IMG/VR virus record: IMGVR_UViG_2687453623_000004
Source of the DNA: a virus
Lineage: Duplodnaviria; Heunggongvirae; Uroviricota; Caudoviricetes
DNA length: 64,000 nucleotides
Reading direction: 5' to 3' (one strand)
The notes under the pieces are model-generated. The model did no database searches and was not told the origin of the DNA. It saw nothing but the letters and a program-made list of their open reading frames with translations. Positions 43,780-62,623 of this stretch are shown here, one piece after another. How positions within the stretch are numbered: the first letter of the stretch is position 1; every line of letters starts with the position of its first letter. Position numbers and translations under genes: made by a program.

Positions 43780-46062
43780 ATGTCCGAGCTTAATGAAAAG
43801 TTAGCCACAGCCTGGGAAGGTTTTACCAAAGGTGACTGGCAGAATGAAGTAAACGTCCGTGACTTCATTCAGAAAAACTACACTCCGTACGAGGGTGACG
43901 AGTCCTTCCTGGCTGGCGCTACTGAAGCGACCACCACCCTGTGGGACAAAGTAATGGAAGGCGTTAAACTGGAAAACCGCACTCACGCGCCAGTTGACTT
44001 TGACACCGCTGTTGCTTCCACCATCACCTCTCACGACGCTGGTTACATCAACAAGCAGCTTGAGAAAATCGTTGGTCTGCAGACTGAAGCTCCGCTGAAA
44101 CGTGCTCTTATCCCGTTCGGTGGTATCAAAATGATCGAAGGTTCCTGCAAAGCGTACAACCGCGAACTGGACCCGATGATCAAAAAAATCTTCACTGAAT
44201 ACCGTAAAACTCACAACCAGGGCGTGTTCGACGTTTACACTCCGGACATCCTGCGTTGCCGTAAATCCGGTGTTCTGACCGGTCTGCCAGATGCTTATGG
44301 CCGTGGTCGTATCATCGGTGACTACCGTCGCGTTGCACTGTACGGTATCGACTACCTGATGAAAGACAAACTTGCACAGTTCACCTCTCTGCAGGCTGAT
44401 CTGGAAAACGGCGTAAACCTGGAACAGACTATCCGTCTGCGCGAAGAAATCGCTGAACAGCACCGCGCTCTGGGTCAGATGAAAGAAATGGCTGCGAAAT
44501 ACGGCTACGACATCTCTGGTCCGGCTACTAACGCTCAGGAAGCTATCCAGTGGACTTACTTCGGCTACCTGGCTGCTGTTAAGTCTCAGAACGGTGCTGC
44601 AATGTCCTTCGGTCGTACCTCCACCTTCCTGGATGTGTACATCGAACGTGACCTGAAAGCTGGCAAGATCACCGAACAAGAAGCGCAGGAAATGGTTGAC
44701 CACCTGGTCATGAAACTGCGTATGGTTCGCTTCCTGCGTACTCCGGAATACGATGAACTGTTCTCTGGCGACCCGATCTGGGCAACCGAATCTATCGGTG
44801 GTATGGGCCTCGACGGTCGTACCCTGGTTACCAAAAACAGCTTCCGTTTCCTGAACACCCTGTACACCATGGGTCCGTCTCCGGAACCGAACATGACCAT
44901 TCTGTGGTCTGAAAAACTGCCGCTGAACTTCAAGAAATTCGCCGCTAAAGTGTCCATCGACACCTCTTCTCTGCAGTATGAGAACGATGACCTGATGCGT
45001 CCGGACTTCAACAACGATGACTACGCTATTGCTTGCTGCGTAAGCCCGATGATCGTTGGTAAACAAATGCAGTTCTTCGGTGCGCGTGCAAACCTGGCGA
45101 AAACCATGCTGTACGCAATCAACGGTGGCGTTGACGAAAAACTGAAAATGCAGGTTGGTCCGAAATCTGAGCCGATCAAAGGCGATGTCCTGAACTATGA
45201 TGAAGTGATGGAGCGCATGGATCACTTCATGGACTGGCTGGCTAAACAGTACATCACTGCACTGAACATCATCCACTACATGCACGACAAGTACAGCTAC
45301 GAAGCCTCTCTGATGGCGCTGCACGACCGTGACGTTATCCGCACCATGGCGTGTGGTATCGCTGGTCTGTCCGTTGCTGCTGACTCCCTGTCTGCAATCA
45401 AATATGCGAAAGTTAAACCGATTCGTGATGAAGACGGTCTGGCTATCGACTTCGAAATCGAAGGCGAATACCCGCAGTTTGGTAACAACGATCCGCGTGT
45501 AGATGACCTGGCTGTTGACCTGGTAGAACGTTTCATGAAGAAAATTCAGAAACTGCACACCTACCGTGACGCTATCCCGACTCAGTCTGTTCTGACCATC
45601 ACTTCTAACGTTGTGTATGGTAAGAAAACTGGTAACACCCCAGACGGTCGTCGTGCTGGCGCGCCGTTCGGACCGGGTGCTAACCCGATGCACGGTCGTG
45701 ACCAGAAAGGTGCTGTAGCGTCTCTGACTTCCGTTGCTAAACTGCCGTTTGCTTACGCTAAAGATGGTATCTCCTACACCTTCTCTATCGTTCCGAACGC
45801 ACTGGGTAAAGACGACGAAGTTCGTAAGACCAACCTGGCTGGTCTGATGGATGGTTACTTCCACCACGAAGCATCCATCGAAGGTGGTCAGCACCTGAAC
45901 GTTAACGTGATGAACCGTGAAATGCTGCTCGACGCGATGGAAAACCCGGAAAAATATCCGCAGCTGACCATCCGTGTATCTGGCTACGCAGTACGTTTCA
46001 ACTCGCTGACTAAAGAACAGCAGCAGGACGTTATTACTCGTACCTTCACTCAATCTATGTAA
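43780..46062 (+). CDS. pflB: Pyruvate formate-lyase
   Basis: 760 aa; glycyl-radical motif region near the C-terminus. Confidence 0.95.
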
Positions 46063-46103
46063 TTAGATTTGACTGAAATCGTACAGTAAAAAGCGTACAA
46101 TAA

Positions 46104-46130
46104 AGGCTCCACGAAAGTGGGGCCTTTTTT
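46104..46130 (+). terminator. Rho-independent terminator after pflB
   Basis: GGCTCCAC-GAAA-GTGGGGCC followed by TTTTTT. Confidence 0.5.
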
Positions 46131-46253
46131 AGCACGAGAGCCTTTTTTGTCAGCTATCTATACTTTAAGGTGACTGCCAAAACAGACTCGACGTAGCCTT
46201 CGAGCTGCGCACCAACACGGCCTCAGATGGGCCACATCTGGAGAAACACCGCA

Positions 46254-46280
46254 ATGTCAGTTATTGGTGACATTTTTTGA
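46254..46280 (+). pseudogene. pflA: 5' end of pflA (first five codons MSVIG) fused to prophage DNA; reads MSVIGDIF-stop
   Basis: ATGTCAGTTATTGGT preceded by GGAGAAACACC about 190 bp after pflB; sequence diverges from what I recall of pflA (cgcattcac...) at 46269. Confidence 0.55.
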
Positions 46281-46343
46281 TATCTAATCACATGAAATAA
46301 AAGGATTTATTTCTGGTCACGTCCACACATTGACCACATCGAC

Positions 46344-46368
46344 AAAAAAAGCCCCTCGACTGAGGGGC
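46344..46368 (-). terminator. Rho-independent terminator downstream of ogr
   Basis: GCCCCTC-AGTC-GAGGGGC followed by TTTTTTT on the minus strand. Confidence 0.5.
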
Positions 46369-46381
46369 TTTCCATTTGTAA

Positions 46382-46600
46382 TTACATCCACATAATTTGC
46401 TGCCCTGACGGCAACGGGTGCGGCCTTACGGCGTGGACTTCTCCCGGCTTCACGATGTATCGCTGTACCGACTCATAGGTGATGAACGTGGCGCTGCAAT
46501 TCACGTTCTGACACTGGTGATAACGCTCTTTTGTCGTGTCAGTGATATAGCGGCTTGTACGCGCATGTGCGGCATGCTGGCATAAAGGACAATGAAACAT
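46382..46600 (-). CDS. ogr: Ogr/Delta zinc-finger late-gene activator
   Basis: MFHCPLCQHAAHARTSRYITDTTKERYHQCQNVNCSATF... 72 aa from the internal Met; four Cys. Confidence 0.85.
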   Translation of the reverse strand: MFHCPLCQHAAHARTSRYITDTTKERYHQCQNVNCSATFITYESVQRYIVKPGEVHAVRPHPLPSGQQIMWM

Positions 46601-46681
46601 CGCGAGCACCTCTTCCGGTTTTGTTGACGGTGCCATTTTAGTTAATTTATCCTTACAAAACAAACAGATAAATAAAACACA

Positions 46682-47845
46682 TCACTCATCACCTTCTGTT
46701 TCGTACTCCACATCAGAAAGCCTGACCTCAAGCTCTAAGGACGTCGTGAAGCCGCTATTATTCAGAAAATGTGTCACCTTAGTGATTGTCCAGTCCTGCT
46801 CGTCTATGACGCGCTTAAAGCCTGACACTTTGACCGGCGTTTCCGTGTAAATATCTGCCCGACCGGTAGCCAGACTGATGGAGAACTCCGCAACGCCCCG
46901 TTGCAGTTTATCCCACTTCGCCTGAGCGGCACGCATGGCCTGCGCTTTCGTGGCATATACCGTGGTCAGGGCAAAAACGTTGTCAGCCTCACCGGCCATG
47001 TATTCACCTTCACGCGCTTCCGGTACTTTAGGCGCTTTCTTCTGCCTGACCGGTTTCGCTTTCGGGTGCTCCAGTGCGCGCAGGTGTTTCTCTTTCTTTT
47101 TGCGTTTCAGTTTTACCTTCTGCTTTTGCGGTTTCGGGTCTTTGGTGTGTAACCACTTTGCCGTTACGCCTGTATAGGCTCCGCGGTCAGCAATCGCAAA
47201 ATGATGACGGTCGCCGTCGCTGCGGGTGATGGTAATCTGCGGGATTTTTTTACCGCTGGCCGTCACCCCCTGCCCCGCTTTGAGAAACAGCAGTTTTCCC
47301 ATTTTTACCGACACCTCACCGCCGTTGCGTTCAGCAAGACGGGTCAGGAATTTCGCATCAGACTCCTGCGACTGGTCGATGTGCGGGATTTTAATTCCTG
47401 CCAGTGACGGCGCGACACTGGCTTCCAGCCTGTTACGGGAGGCTATCGCCTCAACAATCGCACCGAGCGTGGTGTCATGCCATGAGCCTTCACGGCGGGA
47501 ATTGAGCGTCCCGCGAAAATCTGCACTCCGGGCGCGGATGGTGACCACATCCGGTGCGCCCCGGTGTTCAACCTCATCAACGGTGAATTTCCCTTTGCAT
47601 ACCAGGGCAAAACCTTTCCAGCCGATATACACCGTCAGGACAGCGCCACGAACCGGCAGCTCGACCTGCCCGTCGGCATCGTTCAGTTCAATATCAAGCT
47701 GGTCAGCCTCAAAGCCCCGGTTATCCGTCAGGGTCATGCTCATCAGACGGTCGCTGATATTGCCGGTAATATCCCTGCTGTCGAGCACCAGCATGTAATC
47801 CGGCGTCAGCGTACTGCCTGCATCAAATGTCAGTGCATCCAGCAT
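46682..47845 (-). CDS. D: Tail protein D
   Basis: 387 aa, same size and position as P2 gpD. Confidence 0.8.
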   Translation of the reverse strand: MLDALTFDAGSTLTPDYMLVLDSRDITGNISDRLMSMTLTDNRGFEADQLDIELNDADGQVELPVRGAVLTVYIGWKGFALVCKGKFTVDEVEHRGAPDVVTIRARSADFRGTLNSRREGSWHDTTLGAIVEAIASRNRLEASVAPSLAGIKIPHIDQSQESDAKFLTRLAERNGGEVSVKMGKLLFLKAGQGVTASGKKIPQITITRSDGDRHHFAIADRGAYTGVTAKWLHTKDPKPQKQKVKLKRKKKEKHLRALEHPKAKPVRQKKAPKVPEAREGEYMAGEADNVFALTTVYATKAQAMRAAQAKWDKLQRGVAEFSISLATGRADIYTETPVKVSGFKRVIDEQDWTITKVTHFLNNSGFTTSLELEVRLSDVEYETEGDE

Positions 47846-48324
47846 TATCCCGCCCCCGTCATACCCGTGAATTTAGTCGCCATACTGCCAGCCTTACCGA
47901 TGAGCGATTCCGCCTGTTTACCGATATCGCCATAAAGCGCGGCCAGTGATTCATCAACGCGGGTGAGCGACAGCGTAAAATCAATTTTCCGGGGTGTGCC
48001 GTCTGCAAAGAAAATACTCCCTGTTTCACTCACCTTGCTGATGACATACATGCCGTAAATCATGCCGGTGCCATCCAGCAACGGCCACGCCCGCCCCTCC
48101 TCTGCCATCAGCCTGAGCGTGGTCATCGTCAGCTTGCCGCCGGTCAGTTCGGGATAAAGCACACCGGCAAGCGTCATGTTTTCCTCACCCACACCGAGAA
48201 ACTGGTAGGCATCCCGTTTACCGATACGGGAATTTGACGGCCAGCGATAATCTGATTCACGCTGCATGGTCTGGTGTGGCAGCGTCTGGCGCATAAAAAC
48301 AAACATACCTAACGCGAGCATCAT
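47845..48324 (-). CDS. U: Tail protein U
   Basis: 159 aa. Confidence 0.8.
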   Translation of the reverse strand: MMLALGMFVFMRQTLPHQTMQRESDYRWPSNSRIGKRDAYQFLGVGEENMTLAGVLYPELTGGKLTMTTLRLMAEEGRAWPLLDGTGMIYGMYVISKVSETGSIFFADGTPRKIDFTLSLTRVDESLAALYGDIGKQAESLIGKAGSMATKFTGMTGAG

Positions 48325-48338
48325 TTTTCGTCACCTCC

Positions 48339-50785
48339 TTAACCGTCATGCATCATGCTGGCACGGGCGCGCGCTCGTTTATCCCGCTCGTATTTTTCGA
48401 GCGCATCCTGTAACTGGCGGTCGAGCTGTGTCCCCGGCGCAGTACCACCCGTCAGGCTGATGTGATATTCGTTTTTACTCTGGTCTACATAAGAGCGGCC
48501 AGCCGGTGCCGTGACCGGCTGATAAGCCTGATAACCTGCATAAGAGCTGGTCGCCGGAATATAACCACCGCTGCCATACGTGGCGGCTTGAGTTCTGGCG
48601 GCGGTCTGGTCAAGTGTGTCTGACTCTTTGTTGATAACACCGAGTTTTTCCAGTACCCAGTCAATACCACTGCGCAGTTTGTTGAACGCATTAAGCGGCA
48701 GCATCAGCGCGTCAGCCAGTGCCTGCCCGAACATGACGCCCGTGTCACGGCAACGGTTCAGGGTGTCCTGGGTGGCTTTGACCGGGGCAATCAGGTTTTT
48801 AAACCACTGCCACGCGGCCTGTAACTTTTCACCCAGCCAGTCAAACACCGGTTTAAGTGGCGTGAACAGTTCCCCCACCGGCGTAAATGCCGCTTTCAGC
48901 CCTTCCACCACACCGCCAAAGAATGCGCTGACAGGCTCCCAGTATTTACGGATAAGCAACGCCCCGGCGACAATGGCGGCCACCACGGCCACAACCGGCC
49001 AGCTAATCGCCCCGATGGCGGTCATAACAGCACTGCCAACCGTCGTGAAGATTGCCCCCATTGCGCCTGCTGCCGCGATGATGGCATTGATGCCGGTGAT
49101 AACCGGCCAGGCTACGAGGCCAATGGCACCGATGACACCAATCAGTGCCAGTGCACCACCGACAATGATGCCGATGGTTGACGCCAGTGATTTGTTTTTC
49201 TGGATCCAGCCGTCGAGTTTTAACACATACTTTGTGGCCGTCTGCGTGAGATTACGCAGTGCGCCTTCCTGCTGGTCAAACAGGTCAGTCCCCACCGCCT
49301 CATAAGCGGACTGAAACTCCTTAAAGTCACCGCCGAGGTTATCCTGCATGATTTTAACCAGCTCTTCCGTTTTACCGTCCGAGGCTTTCAGCGTGGCGGT
49401 CAGCTTATCCAGTTTTCCGCTTGCTGCCGCTGCCAGTAAAACGTTCGCTGATTTCAGGGCTTCCTCACCAAAAATGGTTTTAAGGTATTCCCCCTTCTGA
49501 GACGTTCCCAGCTTGTGTTTATCAAAGCTGGCCTGAATCTCTTTCAGAATGGTGAACAACGGACGCATATTTCCCTTTTTGTCCGAGGTTTTAACGCCAA
49601 GCTCTTTGAGTGCATCCCATGCTTTTCCAGTCGGTGCCTGTAATCGGGTGACAACGGCACTACTACCCGTACCCGCCATTGACCCCCTGATGTTATTGTC
49701 ATGCAGCACACCTGTCATGGCCGCTGCCTGCTCAAGACTTACGCCTGCCGTCCTCGCAACCGGCCCGAGGTAAGTCAGTGCATCACTGAGTCCCTGAAAA
49801 TCAGCGCCGACTTATTCATCGTTGCAGACAACACGTCGCCCACATGGCTGACATCATCATTTGACAGTTGAAAGGATGCCTTAGTCCCCAGCAACAGTTG
49901 CGCGTTTTCTTCCATCGACCGCTGATTCGCCAGTGCCATATTCAGCGTGACCGGCGTTGCCGCCTGAATAGCCGCAGCATCTCCACCCGCTTTCGCAATG
50001 ATAATCTGCGCACCGGCCGCATCATCCGCCGAGGCGGCTGTGTTGTCACCGAGCTGGCGCGCCTGTTTGCGGAGTGCGGTCATTTCGGCGGAGTCTTTTG
50101 CCACTCCGAGCACGGCCTGCAATTCTGAGTTTTTCTGCGCAAACTCATAACCGGGCATCAGCAGCTTAACTCCGGCCATCGTTCCCGCAGCAGCAATCCC
50201 CGCACCGGCAGCGCCCACTGAGGCCATATTTCCGGCCAGTTCCTTTCCTGCCTGATAACGCTGTTTGACTGCGTTAAGTTTTGCCTGTTGTACACTGACA
50301 CGCGCCAGCGCGTCACGCTGACGGTTAAGCTGTGCGGTGGTTTCACTGATACGGTTTTTCAGTCCCTGCTCATCATGTGCAAGATTGCGGGTATTAATTC
50401 CCACAGCGGCCAGTTCTCGCTGCTGGCGTTTAACGGAATCTGTCAGGCGGTTATATTTCGCCTGTAAGTCCTCCGCCGCACGCTTTGCGGATTCCAGCAC
50501 TTTCGCCTGAGCACGGGTCGGACGTTCGGTGTTTTTAAACTGTGTGGCAAGGGCTTCGGCTTCCTGTCGAGCCTTTTCAAATGCATGACCAGTCACGGCG
50601 AGCTGTGCACTGGTCTTGCGGAATCCCTCAATACGGGATGCGTGACCGTTCAGCTCGCGCAGTGATTTTTGTGTTTCCCGGATATCCCCCGACAGCGACT
50701 TGCTCGCTGTACGGATGGATTTAAACGGGCGGGATGCCTGGTCAACAGCCCTGAGCAATACCTGTAATTTTACATTGTTACTCAT
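48339..50785 (-). pseudogene. T: Tail tape measure gene T, split by a frameshift into 336-aa and about 487-aa reading frames
   Basis: Two minus-strand ORFs in different frames overlapping only at 49778-49811, which contains an AAAA run; combined length about 812 aa versus roughly 815 aa for P2 T (from memory). Confidence 0.6.
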
Positions 50786-51205
50786 TCGTGTTTCCGCTTC
50801 GCCGGAGCGCCTTTTCGCGCCATGTGATGAGTTCGGTCAGGCTCATGGGATACAGTTCTGATGGCGGCCAGTGAAATATCACTGCCACATCCGCCATCAG
50901 GTCATCGACCGAGAGATTTTTCGGAAACGTTACTGCACCGAGTTCGGCGACAAAAAACCGACCACCTTACCGGCCAGCGCCACAAGGTCAGGCAGCTCCA
51001 GCGCGGCGACCTCCTGCTCAGTCAGCATCGGTGCCGTCATGCGCGGCAGCACTTTAATCAGTGCATCGACTTCGGAGTTCGCGACCGCAGCCAGACTGAC
51101 ACCGCGCAGCGTCCCGGCATTGGGTTTCATCAGCGTGACCTGTTCGATAACCTGCTCACCACGCTTGACCGGATTGTCCAGGGTAATCACATTTTCTTTG
51201 TTCAT
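50781..51205 (-). CDS. E+E' frameshift product (programmed -1 shift at the T-TTT-TTG slippery run)
   Basis: Minus-strand G GTT TTT TGT at 50951-50957; the -1 frame continues to a TAA overlapping the T start (AATGAGTAA). Confidence 0.55.
50930..51205 (-). CDS. E: Tail assembly chaperone E
   Basis: 91 aa; ends ...GKVVGFLSPNSVQ. Confidence 0.8.
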   Translation of the reverse strand: MNKENVITLDNPVKRGEQVIEQVTLMKPNAGTLRGVSLAAVANSEVDALIKVLPRMTAPMLTEQEVAALELPDLVALAGKVVGFLSPNSVQ

Positions 51206-51261
51206 GGTTTTCTCACTTCTGAATCAGGGTTAACCGGTCAGCCTGGCTGACCGGATGAAAA

Positions 51262-51780
51262 TCACAGGCCGATATTGCGGCGGTGTTGCTCCAGCCGGTC
51301 GACGCCGTTCACCTTCTCAATCATGTTGATGGTGTCGATTTCGACCAGCTCCTTACCGTCCATCGTCAGCCGGAAATAGGTGCAGACCACGGAGATTTTC
51401 GACTCGGTGTCTTCTCCCTGTTTACCCTCTCCGGTGTCGATTTCTTTCTGACGTCCACGCATGACCACTTCGACGGCCACCGTTTCGCCGGTATCGTCAC
51501 GCTGGTAAGAGCCTGCAAAACGAATCGGCACGGCATCCACGCCGGTTGCGGCGTAAAGCTCCCAGATAACCGAATCCGGGAAGCCCCCGAGCGACCACTC
51601 CATTGACAGCGCATCGTCATCAAGGCCGAGGTCTACCGGTGCGCTGCCGTTCATCCCCGCACCGCGATAGTTTTCGAGCTTACGGGTCAGTTTTGGCAGC
51701 GTGACGGACTTTGCAACGCCCTGATAGCTGTAGCCGTTCAGAAAGACGTTCATTAACTTGAGTTTGCGCGGCATTGCCAT
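51262..51780 (-). CDS. FII: Tail tube protein FII
   Basis: 172 aa. Confidence 0.85.
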   Translation of the reverse strand: MAMPRKLKLMNVFLNGYSYQGVAKSVTLPKLTRKLENYRGAGMNGSAPVDLGLDDDALSMEWSLGGFPDSVIWELYAATGVDAVPIRFAGSYQRDDTGETVAVEVVMRGRQKEIDTGEGKQGEDTESKISVVCTYFRLTMDGKELVEIDTINMIEKVNGVDRLEQHRRNIGL

Positions 51781-51792
51781 CGGTCAGGCTCC

Positions 51793-52983
51793 TTAATTGC
51801 TGTTAACCGAGGTGACCAGATTTGCCAGGTATTTATCGGTAATACGCTGGCGCAGGGTCAGGTTTTCAAGAGGAGGCACCGGTGTATAGTCGTAGTCGAT
51901 ATACAGTTTTCCGGCCTTGAGGGTTTCCGCATCGTTGGATTCTTCGCTGAACCAGCAGGTCGCATCCACGATATAGCCGTTTGTTTTCAGCTCACGGAAT
52001 TTGGCATTGATGCCGTCAACGATGTCGCGAATCAGCGTTGCGGTGATGGGCTTGTCCACCGCCCACATGTGCGCCTCAGCCATCGTGTCGGCAAGCACCT
52101 GCGCGGTGCGGGTGTAGTTTTCAAAGAGGAACAGCGGGTCATCAGAGCAGGTACGGTTACCCCAGAAGCGGAAACCGTCACGGCGAATCAGCGTTGTGAC
52201 GCCTGACTCGTTAAGCAGGTCAGCATCGGTACCGGACTCCTGCAAATCCCAGAATACAGAGGCGCTGATGCCGGTAACACCGCTTACCCCGACGTTGGAC
52301 AGCGTTTTATGCCAGCCCTGCTCCTGGTCGATTTTAGCACGCAGGCCCAGTGCACGAGCGGTGGCATACGCGGTGGCGGTGGTACTGGCGACCGTATCCC
52401 ATGCGAGGAAATCCGGCCAGATGACCATCAGCTCACGCTGGCTGAAATTCTGGCGGTAGGCTTTCACCTCGGAAATGGTCTTACAGCCCCATGCGCTGAT
52501 ATACCCGAAAGCGCGCAGCTTCTGACAGACTGATGCCAGTGCGACGGCAACCTCTTTGGTGTCCAGTCCCGGCACACCAAGAATACGCGGTTTAACACCG
52601 GTTACCGACTCCGCCGCCAGCAGGGCTTTCAGTCCGGTGTACTGACCGTTTTCGTCGGTGGTGCCGATGATATTGGAAATGGTCTGCGCAAGTTTCGTTT
52701 CTTCGTCGTCGCCGGTGCCGTCTTCCACACGCACGACAACGGTGACCGGTTTTGACTGGTCGGCGATGGCCTGCAACGATGCCGCCAGCGTGCCTTTTTT
52801 ACCGGCCTTTGCAATTGCGCTCTGCACATTGGTTATCAGCACCGGTTTATTGAGGGGGAAGGTTTCCGCATCCGCATCGCTGGCCGTGCAGACCATGCCG
52901 ACAATGGCCGTGGATACGGTGGAAATGACGCGGGTGCCGTCGTTAATCTCCAGCACCTGCACGCCGTGATGATAGTCACTCAT
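51793..52983 (-). CDS. FI: Tail sheath protein FI
   Basis: 396 aa. Confidence 0.85.
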   Translation of the reverse strand: MSDYHHGVQVLEINDGTRVISTVSTAIVGMVCTASDADAETFPLNKPVLITNVQSAIAKAGKKGTLAASLQAIADQSKPVTVVVRVEDGTGDDEETKLAQTISNIIGTTDENGQYTGLKALLAAESVTGVKPRILGVPGLDTKEVAVALASVCQKLRAFGYISAWGCKTISEVKAYRQNFSQRELMVIWPDFLAWDTVASTTATAYATARALGLRAKIDQEQGWHKTLSNVGVSGVTGISASVFWDLQESGTDADLLNESGVTTLIRRDGFRFWGNRTCSDDPLFLFENYTRTAQVLADTMAEAHMWAVDKPITATLIRDIVDGINAKFRELKTNGYIVDATCWFSEESNDAETLKAGKLYIDYDYTPVPPLENLTLRQRITDKYLANLVTSVNSN

Positions 52984-53070
52984 CCGTTTAACTCCGTGGT
53001 TAATGGGTGCAACTATTTTCTGTTGTGCAGAGCATGAGACGCTATTTGACCTGGCTGGCCAGTGGATGAA

Positions 53071-53106
53071 ACAACAAATAAAGAAAAGGCGGGCAATCAG
53101 CCCGCC
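53071..53106 (-). terminator. Rho-independent terminator upstream of FI, terminating the cargo gene transcript
   Basis: GGCGGGC-AATCA-GCCCGCC perfect stem followed by TTTTCTTTATTT on the minus strand. Confidence 0.5.
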
Positions 53107-53294
53107 TGCCTTGATTTGTTCTCACTCAGCTTCCAACTGACAAGTTACATAATCAAAACGCTATTAAATCTGACAGTCTGCTTTGAGCGATGAACGGACA
53201 TAACGACTCACTAATGACTAATTTGCTAACCGCTTCCGACCCAAAACTGTCGGTTGCATGATAATTAATCCAGCAAGCAAATTCATAGTCATTG

Positions 53295-53771
53295 CTATAT
53301 GTTACTGGGATTATTAAAAGGGATAATACTGGCCAATCCGTCATCAACATCAAGACCATAGGTAACCGCTATTTCTGCCAGAGAGTTACCACACTTTTGT
53401 CGCAGTTTAAAAAGGGCTCGCTCAAGTATGGATATTTGAACAGGATGATCAAGTTGGATAAAGTGAGGGGAGCCAACGCTGTCACAGAATTCTTGGCATG
53501 CTTTTCTCATTTTCCTTAATTGTTTTGCTAAATGTGAATCGCTCGGCAAACCTTGTAGGACTTTAGTCAATTCAGATCTAATGTTGATAACACTCGAAGT
53601 GCAATGACTAGCACCCTCCATGTCGACAGGATTGAAAAGAACGCGCTTGTCCTCAAGAAAAATGACGATCTTCTTCGCTTCGTCAGTTTCTATTATTGGA
53701 GCATTCCACTGAATCCCGAATATGGGACAGCTAAGGCCAGTAATATTTTTATAGATTTGTTCAAATTTCAA
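53295..53771 (-). CDS. Cargo protein of unknown function (158 aa) in the G/FI hotspot
   Basis: AT-rich; apparent TTG start 7 nt after a strong AAGGAG; own terminator; no family recognised. Start codon position by my count is 53770-53772 (one-nt discrepancy with the track). Confidence 0.5.
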   Translation of the reverse strand: MKFEQIYKNITGLSCPIFGIQWNAPIIETDEAKKIVIFLEDKRVLFNPVDMEGASHCTSSVINIRSELTKVLQGLPSDSHLAKQLRKMRKACQEFCDSVGSPHFIQLDHPVQISILERALFKLRQKCGNSLAEIAVTYGLDVDDGLASIIPFNNPSNI

Positions 53772-54030
53772 AAGTCACTCCTTGGATGGACTCTGAGCAT
53801 ATAAAACGCCATACTGATAAACGGACTCGGTTCAAGTAATCTGTTAGATAGCATAACTCGGAACCACTGTAAAAATAGTTGTTAACATACCTAAAAGTGA
53901 CAGCGGAGGCAAGATTCCCTCAGCCGGAGCGATAAATTAGGCATAAGTTATACACACATTAGTAATAATCACTAAAGATATTCTAATTTTTTATGCCGAC
54001 TTAATATGATTTCCCGTCAATCAGGTTAGC

Positions 54031-54054
54031 GTCCGCTCCTGGCACAAAGCGGAC
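54031..54054 (+). repeat. 24-bp hairpin repeat copy 1 (GTCCGCT-CCTGGCACAA-AGCGGAC)
   Basis: Perfect 7-bp stem; second copy at 54954-54977 with 21/24 identity. Confidence 0.6.
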
Positions 54055-54159
54055 GAGGTAACTGAGCTAAAGGTCCGCTGTGAGCGAAAAGTGGACATTA
54101 GAGTTACAAAAGTAAGTTTAAATCATCCAAAATATTACAATATCCTTATCTATCTGATA

Positions 54160-54189
54160 TTGTTATGATAAAAAGTTCCTGAATATAAT
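54160..54189 (+). promoter_or_regulatory. Sigma70-like promoter for the membrane-protein gene
   Basis: TTGTTA, 18-bp spacer, TATAAT; AGGTGG ribosome-binding site 9 nt before ATG 54212. Confidence 0.45.
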
Positions 54190-54211
54190 CGATAGTAGGT
54201 GGTTATTTTCC

Positions 54212-54589
54212 ATGAAATCAATTTTAGAGGTTTTTACTCAAGGAAATACTAAAGAAAAACTGGCTGTTATCGCTGATCTCACAACCATTGCGGGAATATC
54301 GATAGCAACTATTATTGCTGGTTTGTTAACCCTAGTTGCAAAAACAGATAAACTAGATGTTGGAAATCTGTTTGGAGTTGTCATAATATCTCTGCTCGGA
54401 TTGGCTGGTGTTTGCTGTTTTATGGCCCTATTTATTTGGGTTATAACCCAAATGTCTAAACCATGGGGAACACCTCGGGGGATTCAGTCCTTAGTTAAGT
54501 GTGCTATTTCCCTTATCTTTATCTGTATTTTTTTGCTGGCTGTCTTTACATTTTATGAGGTTATTTCTTCGATGAGAATACTCTATTGA
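54212..54589 (+). CDS. Small membrane protein (125 aa, three predicted helices), unknown function
   Basis: AT-rich; hydrophobic stretches IAGISIATIIAGLLTLVA, VVIISLLGLAGVCCFMALFIWVI, AISLIFICIFLLAVFTF; own promoter and terminator. Confidence 0.5.
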   Translation: MKSILEVFTQGNTKEKLAVIADLTTIAGISIATIIAGLLTLVAKTDKLDVGNLFGVVIISLLGLAGVCCFMALFIWVITQMSKPWGTPRGIQSLVKCAISLIFICIFLLAVFTFYEVISSMRILY

Positions 54590-54614
54590 ATATAAAATCA
54601 GCTCTCATAACTTA

Positions 54615-54643
54615 AAAGAGGCCTTCTATAAGGTCTCTTTTAA
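54615..54643 (+). terminator. Rho-independent terminator after the membrane-protein gene
   Basis: AAAGAGGCCTT-CTAT-AAGGTCTCTTT followed by TAATTG. Confidence 0.5.
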
Positions 54644-54953
54644 TTGAATTACCATCCTATTAATCCAGAGAATCTTTATCATCACAAAATAACAAACATT
54701 GGAGATAATTAATAAACTAATCATCCTCAAGATCATCTTTATCTTTACAAAGCGAGTGTCAGTATTCATCCTAACATCAAGTGCAGAATGGAGTATTTTA
54801 TGTATCTTCATGCCGCTTGCACGCTTTATCTCGTTTTTTGTAGGTGGTGTACTATCTCTAAATGACCATTTATATGGTGTAAGACTACTGACTTTAGAGG
54901 GCTATGATCTACATAGTTCTTCTAACCATTATTCTCCAAATAAACTTTACAAC

Positions 54954-54977
54954 GTCCGCTCCTGGCACGGAACGGAC
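54954..54977 (+). repeat. 24-bp hairpin repeat copy 2 (GTCCGCT-CCTGGCACGG-AACGGAC)
   Basis: Same orientation as copy 1; an AATCAGG-like flank lies on the opposite side (CCTGATTAGG). Confidence 0.6.
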
Positions 54978-55642
54978 AGCCTGATTAGGTTTTACTCTGT
55001 GCCATAGATGAGTAATCTCATACCAGAGCTAATACGATTTATTGCGGCATTTCTGGCCATTCTATATCCGGAGCATTTTCCGGCTGAACGCGATTCAGTA
55101 GCACACGGTATTTTTTCCAGTGTGTCAGGCTTAACTTTTCTTCCTCGGTAGCCATATCTAAATCGACAGCATCCTGCAGAGTGCCAATAATTTCACCGGC
55201 ATATGCAATCTGCTCTTTCTTCTGAGACTCCGCCGCTCTGACAAGTGCATCATGCTCTGCATTCTCATCATTCACCCACGCATTTCCGTTCCATTTCTGA
55301 TAATCCCCATCCGGGGAAATGGCTGTCACGTCTGGAGGTAATGCACCAAGTTCAGAAATATAAATGGCTGCTCCCGTTTTCGTTTCGTAGACAGTCTTTC
55401 CGCGATGATCTTCCATCAACTCCCATTTCATTTCATCTGCATTGAAAACGGCTGCATAACCAGCAGGAATATCAGGTGGTGCAATATCTGTACTGTTTGC
55501 AGGCAGACCTGTATGCGGCGGAATATATGCATCACTTTCGCCAATAAACTCATTGGTTGCGTATTACCGTGAAGGAGATCGGTGAGTAACATCGATGGAG
55601 ATCGGTTCGTGTCACTTTCACAGAACCGTTTTTAAATTACCT

Positions 55643-56392
55643 TCACTGATCTCCTTCGGTCAACGGAGATTGTATTTTCCGCATTGATTCTCCTTTAAGT
55701 TCGATCTTGATACTGCCATGAACCAGTCGATCTAGGATGGCATCCGCATGTGTGGAGTCTCCGATCATTTTGTACCAGTTTTCCACCGGCAACTGGCTCA
55801 CTACGATGATTGAGCCTCGTTGGTACATCAGATCCACTATTTCCAGCAGGTCGCTACGCTGTTCTGATGAGAGAGGTTCCAGCCCCCAGTCATCCAGAAG
55901 CAGCAGATCGCTATTATTCAGCCTGGTCAAAAGTTTGCTGTATCTTCCATCAGCATGCCCCTGATAGCACTGTTCCATCAGCGCTTTAAGGCGATAATAG
56001 TAGACCTTGTATCCCTGTCGGCAGGCATTATGACCAAGTGCACATGCCAGGAACGTTTTACCGCTGCCGGTGGCCCCGGTCAGTAAAATATTTTGTTTCA
56101 GGGTTAACCAGTTTCCCTGACTGAGTGAACGGATGAGGGCCCTGTCCAGCCCTCTATTGTTACGATAATCCAGCTTTGATAACTCAGCATTAAGTCTGAA
56201 CCGTGCATGTTTGATCAGACGCTCTGCCTTCCTGTTTTCACGGCAGGTTAGTTCTTCTGCTGTCAGTAATGACAGGCGTTCTTCGAAGCCCAGCTCCTGG
56301 TATGTGCCCGGTTGAGCAAGTTGCTTTTTAAGCGCATCACGGAAGCCGGTGAGTTTAAGTGCGGTCAGTTGTTCGTAAAGATGATTCATCAT
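55643..56392 (-). CDS. istB: IS21-family helper ATPase IstB
   Basis: 249 aa; Walker A LTGATGSGKTF. Confidence 0.85.
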   Translation of the reverse strand: MMNHLYEQLTALKLTGFRDALKKQLAQPGTYQELGFEERLSLLTAEELTCRENRKAERLIKHARFRLNAELSKLDYRNNRGLDRALIRSLSQGNWLTLKQNILLTGATGSGKTFLACALGHNACRQGYKVYYYRLKALMEQCYQGHADGRYSKLLTRLNNSDLLLLDDWGLEPLSSEQRSDLLEIVDLMYQRGSIIVVSQLPVENWYKMIGDSTHADAILDRLVHGSIKIELKGESMRKIQSPLTEGDQ

Positions 56393-56403
56393 TGGATCCC
56401 GTA

Positions 56404-57945
56404 TCAGTGGTAATACTCACTGCCGCGTACGTTTTCGTGTTCCATCGTGGATAACAGATCTGGTTTTGGATCCTGAACAGGTTGTTTATCCAGACCTTTT
56501 TCCAGGATCGATTTAATACCTGACAGACGCCATACCTTTGTTTTCAGAGCTCTTGCACATGCTGCATTAAGTCTGGCTTTACTGTATTTTTTATGAAGGT
56601 TCAGGAGTCCAAGGCAGAAGCGATAGCTTTGTTCCGGATGTGGACGAGAGTTCAGTATATGAAGCACATAACTATGAGTTTCACTGCCTATGTGCCCCGC
56701 CCATTCCAGAAGACGCTCTGGCGTCCAGGTGGCATGCTGTCGATGAGCTTCAGGCATGTGCTCGTTGCGGGTACTGTAGCCATAAGTACGCTTGCGCGGG
56801 TGCACAGCAACCTCCTGCCCCTGATTGAAGAGTCTTACCAGTTCTCCGGAGATCCATGCTTCCAGTTGCTGGCCTAACAGCGAACATGGAACCGAGTAGT
56901 AATGTTTGTCGATTTCCACGTGGTAATCGGCATGAACTCTGACTTTCTTCACCAGGGTGTAACTGTAACTGGCTTCAGGAAGAGGCTTCAGTGCGGGTTT
57001 ATCAAGCTGGATGAAGAGTTCTGCACGTGAATAACCCAACTTCTGCATTATTTTGTTATTCAGTCTTTCCAGCAACTCCCGAATGCGCTGATTAAGCGAT
57101 GCAAGGCTGTAGAAGATCTCATGCCTGATTCGGGCCATGATCCAGCGTTCAACAACCTGAACGCCAACTTCAGCTTTGGCTTTATCTTTCGGTTTACGTG
57201 GCCGCGCAGGCAAAACTGCGACATTATAATGCTCAAGCATCTGCTGGTAGGTAGGGTTAACGTCAGGATCATACTTACATGCCCTGGATGTGGCGCTTTT
57301 CAGATTGTCCGGAACAACAAGTTCAGGAACGCCACCCAACCACTGGAAGCAGCGAACATGACTCATCACCCAGTCTTCAAGCTGCTGAGACCAGGTGGCC
57401 TCTGCCCATGTGTAACTTGATGCCCCGAGAACAGCTACGATGACCTGAGCAGTTCTTATTTCTCCGGTCTCAGGGTCGGTAACGCCAACGGTAGGTCCAC
57501 AGTAATCAACGAAAAGTTTTTCGCCAGCTTTATGTACCTGACGCATTGATGGTGAAGTGGTTTTGAGCCATTCACGGTACATCCGGCAGTAATGGTTATA
57601 GCTGTAAAAACCGCCTGGATTACGCTCACAGTATTCTTCCCAGAGTAGCTGCAGCGTCACGCATTTATTACGCAGTTCCCGGTGTACTGTAGCCCAGTCA
57701 GGCAGAGAGTGCTTCTTCATCTTAACCTGGGTCTGAAGGAACGCATGTTTTAGTTTTGTATCATCCCATCCTGTAGGTAAGGGCCACTGCTTTATGCCAA
57801 GTTGAGCCGCCCGATTAGCATATCTGGATACAACGGAAGGGGAGATTGCAAGACTACGACCAATTTGTCGATGGCTGAGTCCAACACCGTATTTAAGCCT
57901 AAGAATTTCTTTAAGTTTTCTCATAGAAATTGGAACTGTTGGCAT
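56404..57945 (-). CDS. istA: IS21-family transposase IstA
   Basis: 513 aa; N-terminal HTH; upstream of istB. Confidence 0.85.
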   Translation of the reverse strand: MPTVPISMRKLKEILRLKYGVGLSHRQIGRSLAISPSVVSRYANRAAQLGIKQWPLPTGWDDTKLKHAFLQTQVKMKKHSLPDWATVHRELRNKCVTLQLLWEEYCERNPGGFYSYNHYCRMYREWLKTTSPSMRQVHKAGEKLFVDYCGPTVGVTDPETGEIRTAQVIVAVLGASSYTWAEATWSQQLEDWVMSHVRCFQWLGGVPELVVPDNLKSATSRACKYDPDVNPTYQQMLEHYNVAVLPARPRKPKDKAKAEVGVQVVERWIMARIRHEIFYSLASLNQRIRELLERLNNKIMQKLGYSRAELFIQLDKPALKPLPEASYSYTLVKKVRVHADYHVEIDKHYYSVPCSLLGQQLEAWISGELVRLFNQGQEVAVHPRKRTYGYSTRNEHMPEAHRQHATWTPERLLEWAGHIGSETHSYVLHILNSRPHPEQSYRFCLGLLNLHKKYSKARLNAACARALKTKVWRLSGIKSILEKGLDKQPVQDPKPDLLSTMEHENVRGSEYYH

Positions 57946-58204
57946 AGGTATCCTTTACCGGAATGGCAAAAGATACAGATCAACACACCTGTGAAGTTCC
58001 AATAACATTGATGGAGATCACTGAATAACAAAATGAGTCAAAAGTGATCTCCATCGATGTTATTCAGCGATCTGTTCAAATGTTATTACCCGATCTCGAT
58101 GGAAGTTATTGAGTGATCTCCTTTCATGAAAATACGCACATTGGTTCCATCAAGTAAATTGAAAACGCGGATAGTTTGTGCTTCTGCACTCATTCTGAAA
58201 GCCA

Positions 58205-60829
58205 TTATGCAAGCCTCACAATATAGTTAAATGCGATGTTTTTGACGGTGTTTTCTGTATTACCTGTAGCATTAACGGTAATAGAGTGCCCGTGTGAGCC
58301 AATAGCAACCGTGTGTGAATGTGCACCAATACCAACCGTATGATTATGTGCACCAATATCTACCGTGTGGGCATGATTCCCGGCAGCTCCTGATGTGCCA
58401 TTAAACGATGGGTTGTCAAAGCCTGTTTTACCGGTTTCACCATTAGTATTGGCATTCCCTCTGTAAATGGTATGTGTATGGTTACCAGTGGTATTAGTGG
58501 TTTTTGTTCCGTAGTTAAACGTACTGACTGTCTTCGTCCCGTAATCAAACGAACTGGTTGTTTTCGTTCCCAAATCCGTATTTGACGCACTGGCACTGTG
58601 AGTATGCGATTTAATCCCGTCCTGTTCCTGTGACAATACGGCACGCCCACTGGCGGGTTTGCCCTTGATTGTCCAGCCGCGCATATCAGGAATAACACCA
58701 GAAGGATAGGCTATAGCCAGTTTCGGATATGCTGCCTTATCAAACGTCTGCCCCTGCATGATTGCATAGCCTGCAGGTGGTGTATCTGATGGCCACGGCA
58801 GCGGAACACCAGGCGGAAACGCTTCAATATTTGCCGAGCCGTCAAATTTTACGCCGTTAATTGTCCTTGCCGTTTTCAGCTTTGTTGCTGTAGCCGCATT
58901 GCCGGACAGTTCACCAGAAAGGCCTGCACTGAATGTCTGTTTTGCCTCCCATGTCTGGGCTTCGTCGATAATTGGTAGCCGACGAATATTGAAGCTACGC
59001 TCCCCAGGATTGCCATATAAGCGGACTGTAAAAAAACGATAGTTGGTTTTGTTTGAAGTGCTGCGCCATACCTGCATTGAACGGGCGACACCTCCGCCTT
59101 CACTGGGGCCAACAGTGATATTTATCAGGTTAGTATCAATGACGCCCCATTCCATCCCATCGGGAATATTGGTCATATCTGAAAGCCTGACAGTTATCAT
59201 GCTGCCCGGTATAAAGTCGTAGGTCTGCCAGTCCAGACTGGATAACCTGTCGGTAACACCGCCGACACCTAATTTAGTGAGTAATGATTTTGAGTTGTAT
59301 ACTTCCGCCCATTCCCCCCAGTCAGTTTCACCGCTGGCGCGGGTTCGCTGAAATGTCCGGTTTTTATAGGCATCCGTTGCTGAAACAGTCGTATATGTCT
59401 GGATATACGATTCAATATCACAACGTTTTTTCACCTCAACTATTGAGCCAACAGCAAGATCTTTAGAGTCGGTGACAGGTGCATTTGTGGCCTGTTTCGT
59501 GACGCTATAAATACCAGGCTTTAAAAGGTCATCAAGATCCCCTGAATAAGTCCATCCCGTGGACTGATACCCAACAGCAATCCAGTCCTCCCATTGTGGA
59601 TTTTCTGCATCCCATGAGGCTGTCAGTCCGCGAATGTACATAGTCCCACTACGGGTGGTATAACGTTGCATCCTCCCATACAGACCGCCTTCAAAGACTT
59701 CCAGAATACCCTGTCCAAAACTCCCTTCCTCCGGGAAATGACGGTCAAATGAGGCTATTGATGTACTGCTATTGCGCCATATTCCCAGGTGTTCCGCACC
59801 ACCTAAAGAATTCAGGTCAATTGACGTGCTTAATGGGCGAGTCCCGCTTGTAATAGCTCTCCATGCACTCCATACAGGACTGACAGGGTTCCATTCTGCA
59901 TCAAGCATCCGAATGTAAATATTACCGGTTCGGGTGGTGTAGCGTTGTGTGCAGTGAAAGCGACCAGCATTGAATACTTCCAGAACCCCATTGCCTTTAT
60001 CTTCAGGGTAACCAGACTCTGGTTTTGCAGTGGATTGTGACGGACATGACCACGTTCCAAGATATTTTTCTTCTGGGCCATAGGAATCAAGATTGTCAGT
60101 GGTTGGAATCATTCCATTGTGTTTCATAAACGTCAGGCTGGTAACGCCAATATTGTCCAGAAAAGCGCCCTTATCTGGAATATCGCCACCGTTCTGGTCT
60201 TTCTGCAGACGTTTCTCAGCATTGTCATAGGCTGCTTTTACTGCCTTTGGCGTTGCTGCCAGCTTTTCACTGGTGCTGTTTGTTGCACTGCTTAACTGAG
60301 TAAAACCTTTTTCTGTCAGCGTGGCGTCAGGATGGCGGCGGGACTGCTCATGCTCTGCGATTTTGTCATCGACGTAATCCTGCGTCGCCATCACTGTGCT
60401 GGCATCAATACTCAGCTCAACAGACGCCACGTTACTGACAATAATGACCATGCGGCAGGTCTGCGCACGCCCGGAGCCTTCAGCCAGTTCAGGCTTATAG
60501 CTTTCTGCCATGTTAGCGACCGCAATCAGTGTTCCGGCATCATCATACAGACCAAGTTCACGCATCCAGAAGCCGCCCACTTCTGGCGGTACAACCAGTT
60601 CAGCCACGATATAGTTTTTATTCTTGTTATCCACGCTGACTTTATTCAGAGCGTGACGCCAGACCTCATGCACCAGTTTCGTCTGACCGGCATCCGGCAC
60701 CGGCAATTTGCCATTACCGTCACCCACGGCCATTGCAGACAGGTTTACTTTTTTCCCGCCGGGGACAGTGGCGGCTGCCAGCTTTGCGGCTCCGGCAGTA
60801 GTGATAACGGTTTTAAATTTCGTGCTCAT
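58205..60829 (-). CDS. H: Tail fibre protein H (mosaic, longer than P2 H)
   Basis: 874 aa; P2-like N-terminus; C-terminal region with GAHxHTV repeats and ...[12 protein letters not shown] end shared with the Mu-like fibre cassettes. Confidence 0.8.
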
Positions 60830-60839
60830 TGTTTCTCAC

Positions 60840-61370
60840 TTATCCGGGATAAACAGTAATAACATCACCATCACAGACCACACCGCCTGTATACAGATAG
60901 CCGGGAATGTCCTGGATAATGTTCAGACCGATAAGGTGGCGACTTGCGGGTTTGGCATCGGCAATCAGCCGTTCCATTTCCAGATACATCTCCTCCGTGA
61001 TGCCGCTTTCCAGTACGCCGATATCAAGGCGGAAGGTTCCTGGCGGGTCGTTTGTCTCCCACCATTCCTTTACGTTAATGAGATAGCCGAGCGGCTCCAC
61101 CACACGCCGGATTGCGCCGACAGTGCCTTTATGACAATGAATGAAATAGGCATCGCGGATAACGGCGCGTTTTGTCGCTTCCGGCCACTTTTCATCCCAG
61201 CGGTCAACCGAAAATGACCACGCCAGCCACGGCAGTAGATTTGCCGGGCAGGTGTCCGGGTTCCACAGCTCACGAATACTGACCGGCGTTTTTTCAATTT
61301 CCGCACAGGCTTTTGCGGCGGCGACTTCAAGCGGTGATGAGCCAGTCGGCAGCAGTCGCGAATCACTCAT
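60840..61370 (-). CDS. I: Baseplate protein I
   Basis: 176 aa. Confidence 0.8.
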   Translation of the reverse strand: MSDSRLLPTGSSPLEVAAAKACAEIEKTPVSIRELWNPDTCPANLLPWLAWSFSVDRWDEKWPEATKRAVIRDAYFIHCHKGTVGAIRRVVEPLGYLINVKEWWETNDPPGTFRLDIGVLESGITEEMYLEMERLIADAKPASRHLIGLNIIQDIPGYLYTGGVVCDGDVITVYPG

Positions 61371-62271
61371 CCGAGCCTCCGGTCACGACGCTGTATTCGG
61401 TGCAGAAAGACGCCTGCGTACTGTTGAGCACAATGTCGGCCAGTGGTGCGGCCAGCTCGACACGCTGCACGCCTTCCACATGCAAAGCGGCATAAATGGC
61501 AGACAGACGGATGTCGCGCCCCAGCCGGTGCTGTGCCGTGATGTACGCTTCCAGTTTTTTCACGGCAGCAGCGCGGATGGGTTCGCTTTCGGGACCAGGG
61601 TAAAGGTAAAGCGTGGCGTTTATCTGGTATTCAACAATGGCGGCAGACTGCACGGTCACGCGGTCGGCCACCGGCCTGACGTCCTCGCCATTAAGGGCGT
61701 TACGCACCACCGCCAGCAGGTCTTCGGATGCCACACCGTTATTTTCACGTGACAGCACAGAGATGGTGACGCAGGCCGGAGACGGACTGGTGACAGAGAT
61801 ATCCGCGACACGCCCATCGGCACTGCGACCATGATACTGATAGGCTCCCACCGACCCGGCGACGCTTAAACCTTCAAACGCCTGCTGAATACGCAGACGA
61901 TAATCGGTGTCAGACTCCATCACTGCCGGTGTCGGCGGGATGGTCGAATCATCTGCCGGGGTGATAGTCAGGCGCGTGGTGTTGTAATTGGCACCAATCA
62001 CATCAAGGTCATTACCGGCTGCACAGGCCAGCATCACCGCCCGTGCAGCCTCATTCACACGCTGACGCCAGATAAGCTCACGATAAGCATTTTCCTCCAG
62101 CAGTTTGACGAGAGGCTCAGATTCCAGCGTCAGGGTACGGGCGACCGCCTCCTGCTGGTCTTCCGGGTAAAGGGAAATCAGTGTCGCCTTGCGTTCAGCG
62201 AGAATGGTTTCAAAGTCCAGCTCCTCGACCACATCCGGTGCGGGTAGCTGGTTCAGGTCGATAATCGGCAT
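61363..62271 (-). CDS. J: Baseplate assembly protein J
   Basis: 302 aa. Confidence 0.85.
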   Translation of the reverse strand: MPIIDLNQLPAPDVVEELDFETILAERKATLISLYPEDQQEAVARTLTLESEPLVKLLEENAYRELIWRQRVNEAARAVMLACAAGNDLDVIGANYNTTRLTITPADDSTIPPTPAVMESDTDYRLRIQQAFEGLSVAGSVGAYQYHGRSADGRVADISVTSPSPACVTISVLSRENNGVASEDLLAVVRNALNGEDVRPVADRVTVQSAAIVEYQINATLYLYPGPESEPIRAAAVKKLEAYITAQHRLGRDIRLSAIYAALHVEGVQRVELAAPLADIVLNSTQASFCTEYSVVTGGSDE

Positions 62272-62275
62272 GGTT

Positions 62276-62623
62276 TCAACTCACAGGGATGGTTAACGAA
62301 AGTGGCTGGCCGGTGTCGTTGTGCTGGCCGGTTAACGTGACCGTCATTCGCCCGTCAAAACTGCGCGCCGTAGTGACGGATGACAGGGTGACGCGGGGTT
62401 CCCATTTCAGCACGGCCATGTAACAGGCGACCTTAATCTGCAACTCAAGCGCCGGGGTCTGCGGCTGGTCAATCATTGACGCCAGCAACGAGCCGTAATC
62501 ACGACGCATCACCCGTGAGCCGACCGGTGTGCGCAGGATATCGCCGATACTCTGGCTGATATGCTCAAGGTCAGTGACAGTCAGGCCATCACTGCGATTC
62601 ATTCCGAGATAACGCGCTGTCAT
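62276..62623 (-). CDS. W: Baseplate wedge protein W
   Basis: 115 aa. Confidence 0.8.
   Translation of the reverse strand: MTARYLGMNRSDGLTVTDLEHISQSIGDILRTPVGSRVMRRDYGSLLASMIDQPQTPALELQIKVACYMAVLKWEPRVTLSSVTTARSFDGRMTVTLTGQHNDTGQPLSLTIPVS

Follow-up and report, generated by a model that had tools for sequence, protein, structure and literature searches.

In E. coli lysogens of a P2-like prophage, pflA, whose first codons are interrupted by the integration, is very probably rebuilt from a phage start codon, a phage-encoded leader and phage-side transcription, and this design, as read from the sequences, is conserved across genera. The stretch of DNA analysed (64,000 nucleotides, referred to as the window) contains the junction between pflB and the ogr end of such a prophage. 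Prophages of this type have been described before, as has the attachment site they use, and the novelty of the junction itself is accordingly low; the result added here concerns the fate of the host gene.

On the host side of the junction, pflB is the last intact host gene ahead of the prophage. It is followed by its intrinsic terminator (-18.9 kcal/mol, z = -5.9, for the fold of 46095-46135) and by the native pflB-pflA spacer, which corresponds to window positions 46063-46268. Positions 46240-46268 read GGAGAAACACCGCAATGTCAGTTATTGGT, with a Shine-Dalgarno GGAG at 46240-46243 and ATG TCA GTT ATT GGT at 46254-46268. The earlier note on this DNA, made from the letters alone, had taken this stretch for the native pflA start together with its ribosome-binding site, and the MG1655 annotation (b0902) bears it out; the crystallised mature PflA, which begins SVIGRIHSF, agrees with the same start. 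Alignment with the prophage-free pflB-pflA region of MG1655 (fetched as L002) showed identity from the pflB stop through 46268, with the exception of one spacer substitution near 46124 (A in the window, G in MG1655), and complete divergence from 46269 on, where the first phage bases are GAC ATT TTT TGA. The break point proposed at 46269 is thereby fixed to the base. What follows it was also read correctly, as the ogr terminator hairpin and then ogr are found beyond the junction, and annotation and matches to Peduovirus agree on a P2-like prophage whose ogr end adjoins pflB. The upstream region of pflA that stays behind (46131-46253), in which, after Sauter and Sawers 1990, we take the pflA promoter to lie, is severed from its gene. 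The orphaned start codon would yield at most the peptide MSVIGDIF*, judged by its reading frame, and transcripts passing it would then meet the hairpin at 46350-46369. This hairpin folds with -21.4 kcal/mol on the minus strand (z = -3.9) and with -20.6 kcal/mol on the plus strand (z = -5.2); since it also folds on the plus strand, it could stop transcripts from the orphaned pflA promoter. A search of the spacer for known RNA families gave none above threshold and sub-threshold matches on the terminators only. The features of the junction and of the adjoining prophage are collected in Table 1.

Table 1. Features at the pflB-prophage junction and in the part of the prophage contained in the window (window coordinates).
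Feature	Position	Strand	Basis
pflB (formate C-acetyltransferase), 760-aa ORF	43780..46062	+	annotated pflB in near-identical NZ_CP024717.1
pflB intrinsic terminator, GGCUCCAC-GAAA-GUGGGGCC then UUUUUU	46105..46130	+	fold; identical in MG1655
native pflA upstream region, severed from pflA	46131..46253	+	identical to MG1655 spacer
remnant ORF at attL, MSVIGDIF*: native ATG and pflA codons 2-5, three phage codons, stop	46254..46280	+	sequence read; attB alignment
attL core GTCAGTTATTGGT	46256-46268		13-bp block identical in attB, attP, attL and attR
phage P arm	46269..46381		identical in free-phage attP
ogr terminator hairpin AGCCCCUC/GAGGGGCU, then U7 on minus strand	46350..46369	-	folds
ogr, P2 late-gene activator (zinc finger)	46382..46600	-	Pfam Ogr_Delta, E 1.1e-21; annotated ogrK
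gpD, late control / baseplate hub protein	46682..47845	-	Pfam Phage_GPD, E 3.7e-26
left 17.7 kb of prophage (ogr, D, U, T, E, tail tube and sheath, cargo, tail fibre and baseplate genes)	46269..64000	-	annotation of E. coli LS4 (locus L001)

The core of the attachment site was defined from attB (MG1655), attL (the window), attR (E. coli LS4, locus L001) and attP (P24A7b, Yersinia phage vB_YpM_46 and OU784746). It corresponds to nucleotides 3-15 of pflA in the MG1655 alignment, and the overlap of the att core with the 5′ end of pflA, suspected from the window, is placed by these alignments in codons 1-5. The identities between attB and attP (17/19) comprise the 13-bp core and, beyond two mismatches, four further common bases. 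In free phages attP is intact, and a 27-codon ORF spans the core there; the C-int-attP module is 93-98% identical to 20 Peduovirus phage records. The integrase contains the Pfam domains Phage_integrase and Int_N. Direct repeats GTCCACA (46321-46327) and GACCACA (46332-46338), 11 bp apart, are found in the P arm. Their common form, GWCCAYA, has four matches in the 3.8-kb free-phage locus, all of them in attP, arranged as two pairs that flank the core, each pair spaced 11 bp; one pair overlaps the last int codons and the other is located about 55-70 bp off on the ogr side (window 46321-46338). Read on the other strand, the repeats fit the P2-type Int arm-site consensus tgTGGaCa (PMC3448106) and may be regarded as putative Int binding sites.

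The earlier note had expected the fate of pflA to be decided at the other junction, and this is where it is decided. The far junction is located beyond the window and was read in E. coli LS4 (NZ_CP024717.1, locus L001), not in the window DNA itself; window 42439-64000 matches L001 1-21562 with 99.995% identity over 21,562 bases, and the prophage in L001 is about 36 kb long. At its far end cox is encoded on the minus strand, followed on the plus strand by C, int (39025-40020) and pflA (40052-40849), the product of the latter having 265 aa versus 246 in the native form. In the int-pflA sequence, ...gcgatATGagtaatttaactaattgtaatacaacagaaaataccgctacggcgggggctaccaaGTCAGTTATTGGTcgcattcac..., the leader ATG is found 31 nt past the int stop; the phage gives this ATG and 19 further codons, MSNLTNCNTTENTATAGATK, and the distance from the int stop to the junction is 91 bp. 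The leader of 20 codons continues without a frame change into pflA from codon 2 on, and AAG takes the place of the native ATG. Residues 21-265 of the chimera are 100% identical to the crystallised mature PflA (3c8f chain A, residues 1-245), and the change of PflA in the lysogen is limited to Met1, which is swapped for the 20-residue leader. Read in this way, the gene is probably rebuilt by the phage start codon and leader and not destroyed. RefSeq already carries the annotation of the 265-aa product. The structure prediction, made on the Salmonella version of the chimera, gave mean confidence of 47 for residues 1-10 and 60 for residues 11-20 of the leader, with no secondary structure, and mostly high confidence for the rest of the protein; the 20-residue leader is thus predicted to be disordered. 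The predicted tryptic peptide of the leader is SNLTNCNTTENTATAGATK. An intact pflA elsewhere, which the earlier note had named as an observation that would speak against its reading, was not found: there is one place of pflA in each of three listed lysogens, and these genomes therefore contain no intact second copy.

We lean towards the explanation that the window contains attL of a PhiD145-type P2-like prophage, that the phage repairs the pflA it cuts by replacing the signals for transcription and translation, and that the chimera is functional. It assumes that a tyrosine integrase recombines attP with attB within nucleotides 3-15 of pflA. What remains of pflA at attL is its start codon and four further codons, preceded by the ribosome-binding site and the presumed promoter; a stop comes after three phage codons, and the two-strand hairpin is next. 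At attR the phage arm between int and the core supplies an ATG and 19 codons in the pflA frame, so that a PflA of 265 aa is encoded. Transcripts of the chimera would come from the repressor-integrase operon (Pc) by read-through, or else start at a promoter-like site at the int end, and the chimeric PflA would still activate pyruvate formate-lyase. The arrangement found is that of gene-restoring integration, with the core inside coding sequence and the phage arm giving the displaced gene end in frame. Points against the repair are the weak Shine-Dalgarno sequence, a promoter site at chance level, the lack of a third-position excess in leader variation, and the occurrence of rare truncated chimeras in Salmonella.

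The same arrangement is frequent. The pflB-ogr junction (801-bp query, full coverage) recurs in 402 of the 5426 complete E. coli genomes searched, and the int-leader-pflA query, also with full coverage, in 404 of them (7.4%); one O25:H4 strain and one APEC O18 strain are among the junction matches listed. Together with the finding that GTCAGTTATTGGT is unique within the 64-kb window (0 expected in shuffles), this rules out the coincidental resemblance to pflA for which the earlier note had allowed. The exact chimeric protein is present on at least 1000 contigs. The protein cluster to which it belongs has 6565 members, a figure that is no count of chimeras because native 246-aa and chimeric 265-aa proteins are held there together; searching proteins with residues 1-80 of the chimera as query returned short fragments only and was of little use. 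In Klebsiella pneumoniae the E. coli leader is found on the species’ own PflA (336 contigs), further leader variants occur in Salmonella, and the chimeras of both have 265 aa. In the sampled lysogens pflA is of full length and annotated as intact. Truncated chimeric PflA proteins are rare and are represented by P0121 and P0123 of Salmonella enterica, with 114 and 131 aa, in which the leader is followed by a frameshift. They are encoded on long contigs, of 4.7 Mb and 1.2 Mb, and could stem either from errors in sequencing or from a pflA that is decaying in a small number of lysogens.

Integrase homologues with 64-99% identity are present in many Enterobacterales. Scanning one genome per species, with the alignment of integrase homologues as query, revealed 12 int-pflA loci of constant spacing, in E. 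albertii, three Scandinavium, Pseudescherichia vulneris, Pectobacterium, two Serratia, Rahnella and three Yersinia; in all 12 the int-adjacent pflA aligns over its full length in a single piece. With the LS4 locus and that of P. atrosepticum added, 14 loci from eight genera were read, including Escherichia, Scandinavium, Pseudescherichia, Pectobacterium, Serratia, Rahnella and Yersinia. Each of the 14 has an in-frame ATG upstream of pflA codon 2, at a distance of 20 codons or, in the two Serratia loci, 18, and this difference of 6 nt is the sole change of leader length among them. The leaders contain no stop in the pflA frame versus 0-5 (mostly 2-4) in the other frames. Their DNA is 48-78% identical, and each would be open in 13-42% of shuffles. 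The presence of an ATG and a stop-free frame in 14/14 loci argues that the phage has been selected for keeping pflA translatable. No third-position excess of change was found in the leader. A single peptide feature, T-[N/D]-C, is conserved, and it is encoded where the DNA carries the motif TAACTNATTGT, which is present but non-coding in sister phages of the pyrE type. Peptide-level selection on the leader was considered and rejected, given the lack of a third-position excess and a seemingly conserved cysteine that is explained by this motif, common to the non-coding sister arms; part of the leader conservation is that of a DNA motif and not of coding sequence. In our reading of these alignments, what selection keeps would be the ATG and the open frame of the leader rather than any given peptide, and recombination proteins would otherwise constrain the arm.

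The debatable issue is the expression of the chimera. The genes C and int and the chimera are co-oriented on the plus strand, and no plus-strand terminator-like sites were detected among C, int and pflA by a scanner that also missed the evident ogr and pflB terminators. In P2 the genes C and int share a transcript that starts at Pc, a promoter active in lysogens. Given the co-orientation and the lack of a terminator-like site, read-through from Pc would be the simplest source of the transcript. A promoter-like site, TTAACC-16-CATAAT, is also found at the int end (L001 39983-40010); the promoter scan gave no excess over chance (2 found vs 3.7 expected). A -10-like hexamer is kept 39-45 nt ahead of the leader ATG in 10/12 loci, with weak matches to -35, and it is a perfect TATAAT in 8/12 divergent loci (L001 position; equivalents in L010-L015 and L086). 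The hexamer is located exactly between the two arm repeats at the int end and may belong either to a promoter, which integrase would cover when bound, or to mere spacer. The Shine-Dalgarno sequence ahead of the leader ATG is a weak purine run in every variant.

One rival explanation is that of a plain disruption, in which the promoter, the ribosome-binding site and the start of pflA are removed, the 265-aa ORF is an unexpressed by-product of annotation, and lysogens are left without active pyruvate formate-lyase. The stranding of the native expression signals at attL, 36 kb from pflA, fits this explanation, as do the weak Shine-Dalgarno sequence and promoter-like sites no more numerous than in shuffles, and ECA29 has been described as disrupting pflA (PMC13492144). 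It does not account, however, for a stop-free leader with an in-frame ATG in every one of the 14 loci of eight genera, at a DNA identity of just 48-78%, nor for a sole length change that is a multiple of three. A prophage that is carried by 7.4% of complete E. coli genomes, with pflA of full length and annotated intact in the sampled lysogens, and the single-piece alignment of pflA in 12/12 int-adjacent loci also speak against it. We therefore consider disruption unlikely.

A further explanation, to which we give slightly less credit than to disruption, accepts a functional pflA and denies the translation of the leader. The open frame would then be a by-product of the protein-binding sites of the arm, and translation would start at or near the native position, at a kept ATG or at a rare ATT at codon 4. 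In the variants of Serratia proteamaculans and Rahnella ecdela an ATG is indeed kept there with a G-rich run before it, and both the non-coding occurrence of TAACTNATTGT in pyrE-type sister phages and the lack of a third-position excess agree with an untranslated leader. In the variants of E. coli, Klebsiella, Salmonella, Scandinavium, Pectobacterium and Yersinia, however, the native position is occupied by AAG, AAA or GTT, none of which is a usual start codon (GTT comes from one Logan metagenome-assembly protein, P0243). Moreover, a constraint of DNA binding explains neither the absence of stops in one frame only nor the 6-nt indel. An assembly error or a one-off rearrangement, as opposed to site-specific integration, has nothing in its favour and a negligible probability. 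It is refuted by the recurrence of both junctions in independent complete genomes (attL in 402, attR in 404), by the matching attP in free phages and by the published position of attB.

The rebuilding of pflA that we favour can be set against what is known of the phages using this site. The viable P2-like coliphages PhiD145 and PhiD160 have their site at MG1655 coordinate 950293 (PMC3448106, Table 1, Nilsson et al. 2011), and the prophage ECA29 is given the same site identity as PhiD145 (PMC3448106). The prophage at pflA resembles PhiD145 and PhiD160 in its P2-type C-Cox-Int module, its attB coordinate and its P2-type arm repeats. If the offset between the old and the current MG1655 numbering is 777, as we assume, and the old pflA end is presumably at about 950303, then coordinate 950293 falls within the 13-bp core, some 11 nt past the beginning of pflA. 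The assignment to the PhiD145 type is made here by the published attB coordinate and not by the partial records of PhiD145 (AM158280, AM159077), and no member of the protein cluster carries the name PhiD145. The recombination system of PhiD145 was reportedly characterised by Mandali et al. in 2010 (Virology 408:64), and the work of Karlsson et al. from 2006 (J Bacteriol 188:3923) is said to be a source on PhiD145 and PhiD160. Neither pflA nor a rebuilt frame is mentioned in the account of PhiD145 in PMC3448106. The full-text search of the literature on pflA with P2-like phage, prophage or integration site gave no paper on the E. coli site, which surfaced via ECA29 and PhiD145 only. In the accessible literature, Evans 2010, Karlsson 2006 and Mandali 2010 apart, no description of a phage-encoded leader or a chimeric PflA was found, and no report of expression or activity of the chimera was found in the accessible literature either.

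ECA29 of Pectobacterium atrosepticum SCRI1043 is also a P2-like prophage in pflA, with an integrase 74% identical to the one described here (P0028), the same int-pflA layout and a 265-aa product. According to a passage of a 2026 review (PMC13492144), which cites Evans et al. 2010 (FEMS Microbiol Lett 304:195), ECA29 disrupts pflA. Although it is reported as a disruption, the P. atrosepticum locus that was read has the in-frame leader MNNSNTCFSTEKPDIAEAVK joined to pflA codon 2, and with an in-frame chimera in this organism the “disruption” by ECA29 may be an over-reading.

Integration into the 5′ end of a gene had been called unusual in the earlier note, and this has to be qualified, as a studied precedent for the 5′ side exists in HK022 at torS, where a mapped phage promoter drives torS and alters host anaerobic physiology (Carey et al. 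2019, eLife, PMC6814406). In both cases the prophage is located 5′ of a host gene, int points towards the gene and the native promoter is cut off, and the distance from the int stop to the junction is 73 bp in HK022 versus 91 bp here. The two differ in the crossover, which in HK022 is upstream of the start codon and at pflA is inside the coding sequence, with the phage supplying the start and an N-terminal extension; the phage promoter, mapped in HK022, is at pflA a candidate site recognised from sequence alone. Intragenic att sites at which the phage restores the 3′ end of the gene are used by phage 21 and e14 in icd and by 186, P4 and P22 in tRNA genes. These share with the prophage at pflA a core inside the gene, a phage-borne substitute for the gene end and the survival of the gene after integration. 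However, in the icd and tRNA phages the 3′ end is replaced while promoter, ribosome-binding site and start are untouched, whereas at pflA it is the 5′ end that the phage replaces, along with every expression signal. P2 itself (locI, locH and others) has the same gene order, Ogr, Cox-C switch and, on either side of a short core, paired arm sites for its integrase, but its integration sites are mostly intergenic (PMC3448106).

Sister integrases (70-72% identical) of Yersinia and Erwinia are encoded directly upstream of pyrE (L016, L017 and L018, about 4990-5240). In the arm of these pyrE-type phages a short ORF (ATGACAACCCCTATCATTGCTGGGGTTGTCAAG...) leads into a run of T immediately ahead of pyrE and may be a phage stand-in for the rph 3′ end governing pyrE attenuation. 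In two Rahnella loci (L019, L020) the integrases are 67% identical to the window type, and neither pflA nor pyrE is found downstream.

As for the prophage itself, its relatives include pro147, pro483, P24A7b and Yersinia phage vB_YpM_46. The gene order of P2 is found in the full prophage of LS4, with ogr-D-U-T-E-tube-sheath, fibres and baseplate, lysis, L-M-N-O / P-Q, A, B and cox / C, int; cox, C, int and the rebuilt pflA are all past the end of the window. The tape-measure gene (gpT, window 48339-50785, minus strand) is broken into ORFs of 336 and 459 aa, one base having apparently been lost near the codons for ...MNKSA(A)DF..., and RefSeq tags gpT as “frameshifted” in the 99.995% identical LS4 genome. 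Placing the frameshift by nucleotide alignment with P24A7b was tried and abandoned as too noisy (88% identity, many gaps), and the frames were read instead. Barring a shared sequencing error, this copy of the prophage is probably unable to build tails. In addition, the tail-fibre assembly gene is broken up by an insertion of ISEc12, of the IS21 family (55643-57945, minus strand; istB 55643-56392, istA 56404-57945). As a second lesion this would likewise keep the prophage grounded, and the copy in the window looks defective. A cargo island of low GC (36-40%) is located at about 53000-55100, in the gap between tail sheath and tail-fibre genes that is the Z/fun position in P2, and encodes a DUF6650 protein (53295-53771, minus strand) and two small ORFs. 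These two ORFs gave no Pfam or PADLOC match, and the defence-system models had no match in the low-GC cargo.

In hundreds of E. coli genomes, and in several other enterobacterial genera, the sole copy of the pyruvate formate-lyase activase gene is a phage-host chimera. In lysogens the start codon and first 20 residues of pflA are phage-derived, as the promoter and ribosome-binding site would be, and for annotation this means a pflA product of 265 aa in lysogens versus 246 aa elsewhere. The finding also matters where the integrase of PhiD145 is to be used as a tool. An active chimera would be a case of 5′-end restoration by a phage combined with takeover of the promoter, and the view of ECA29 as a knockout would have to be corrected. 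An inactive one would mean that pyruvate formate-lyase activity is missing from a sizeable share of E. coli, an even more surprising outcome. A broader proposal, which we hold to be evenly balanced between true and false, is that the whole integrase lineage carries in its att arm a portable 5′ gene end, possibly with a promoter, a start codon and an open leader, resulting in a phage-controlled chimeric pflA in E. coli, Klebsiella, Salmonella, Yersinia, Serratia, Pectobacterium and their relatives. Were it true, the published disruption of pflA by ECA29 would be wrong, the pyrE sister phages may do likewise with the rph-pyrE attenuator, and in about 7% of E. coli, strains of the ST131 type among them, phage signals would govern the activation of pyruvate formate-lyase, the key step of mixed-acid fermentation.
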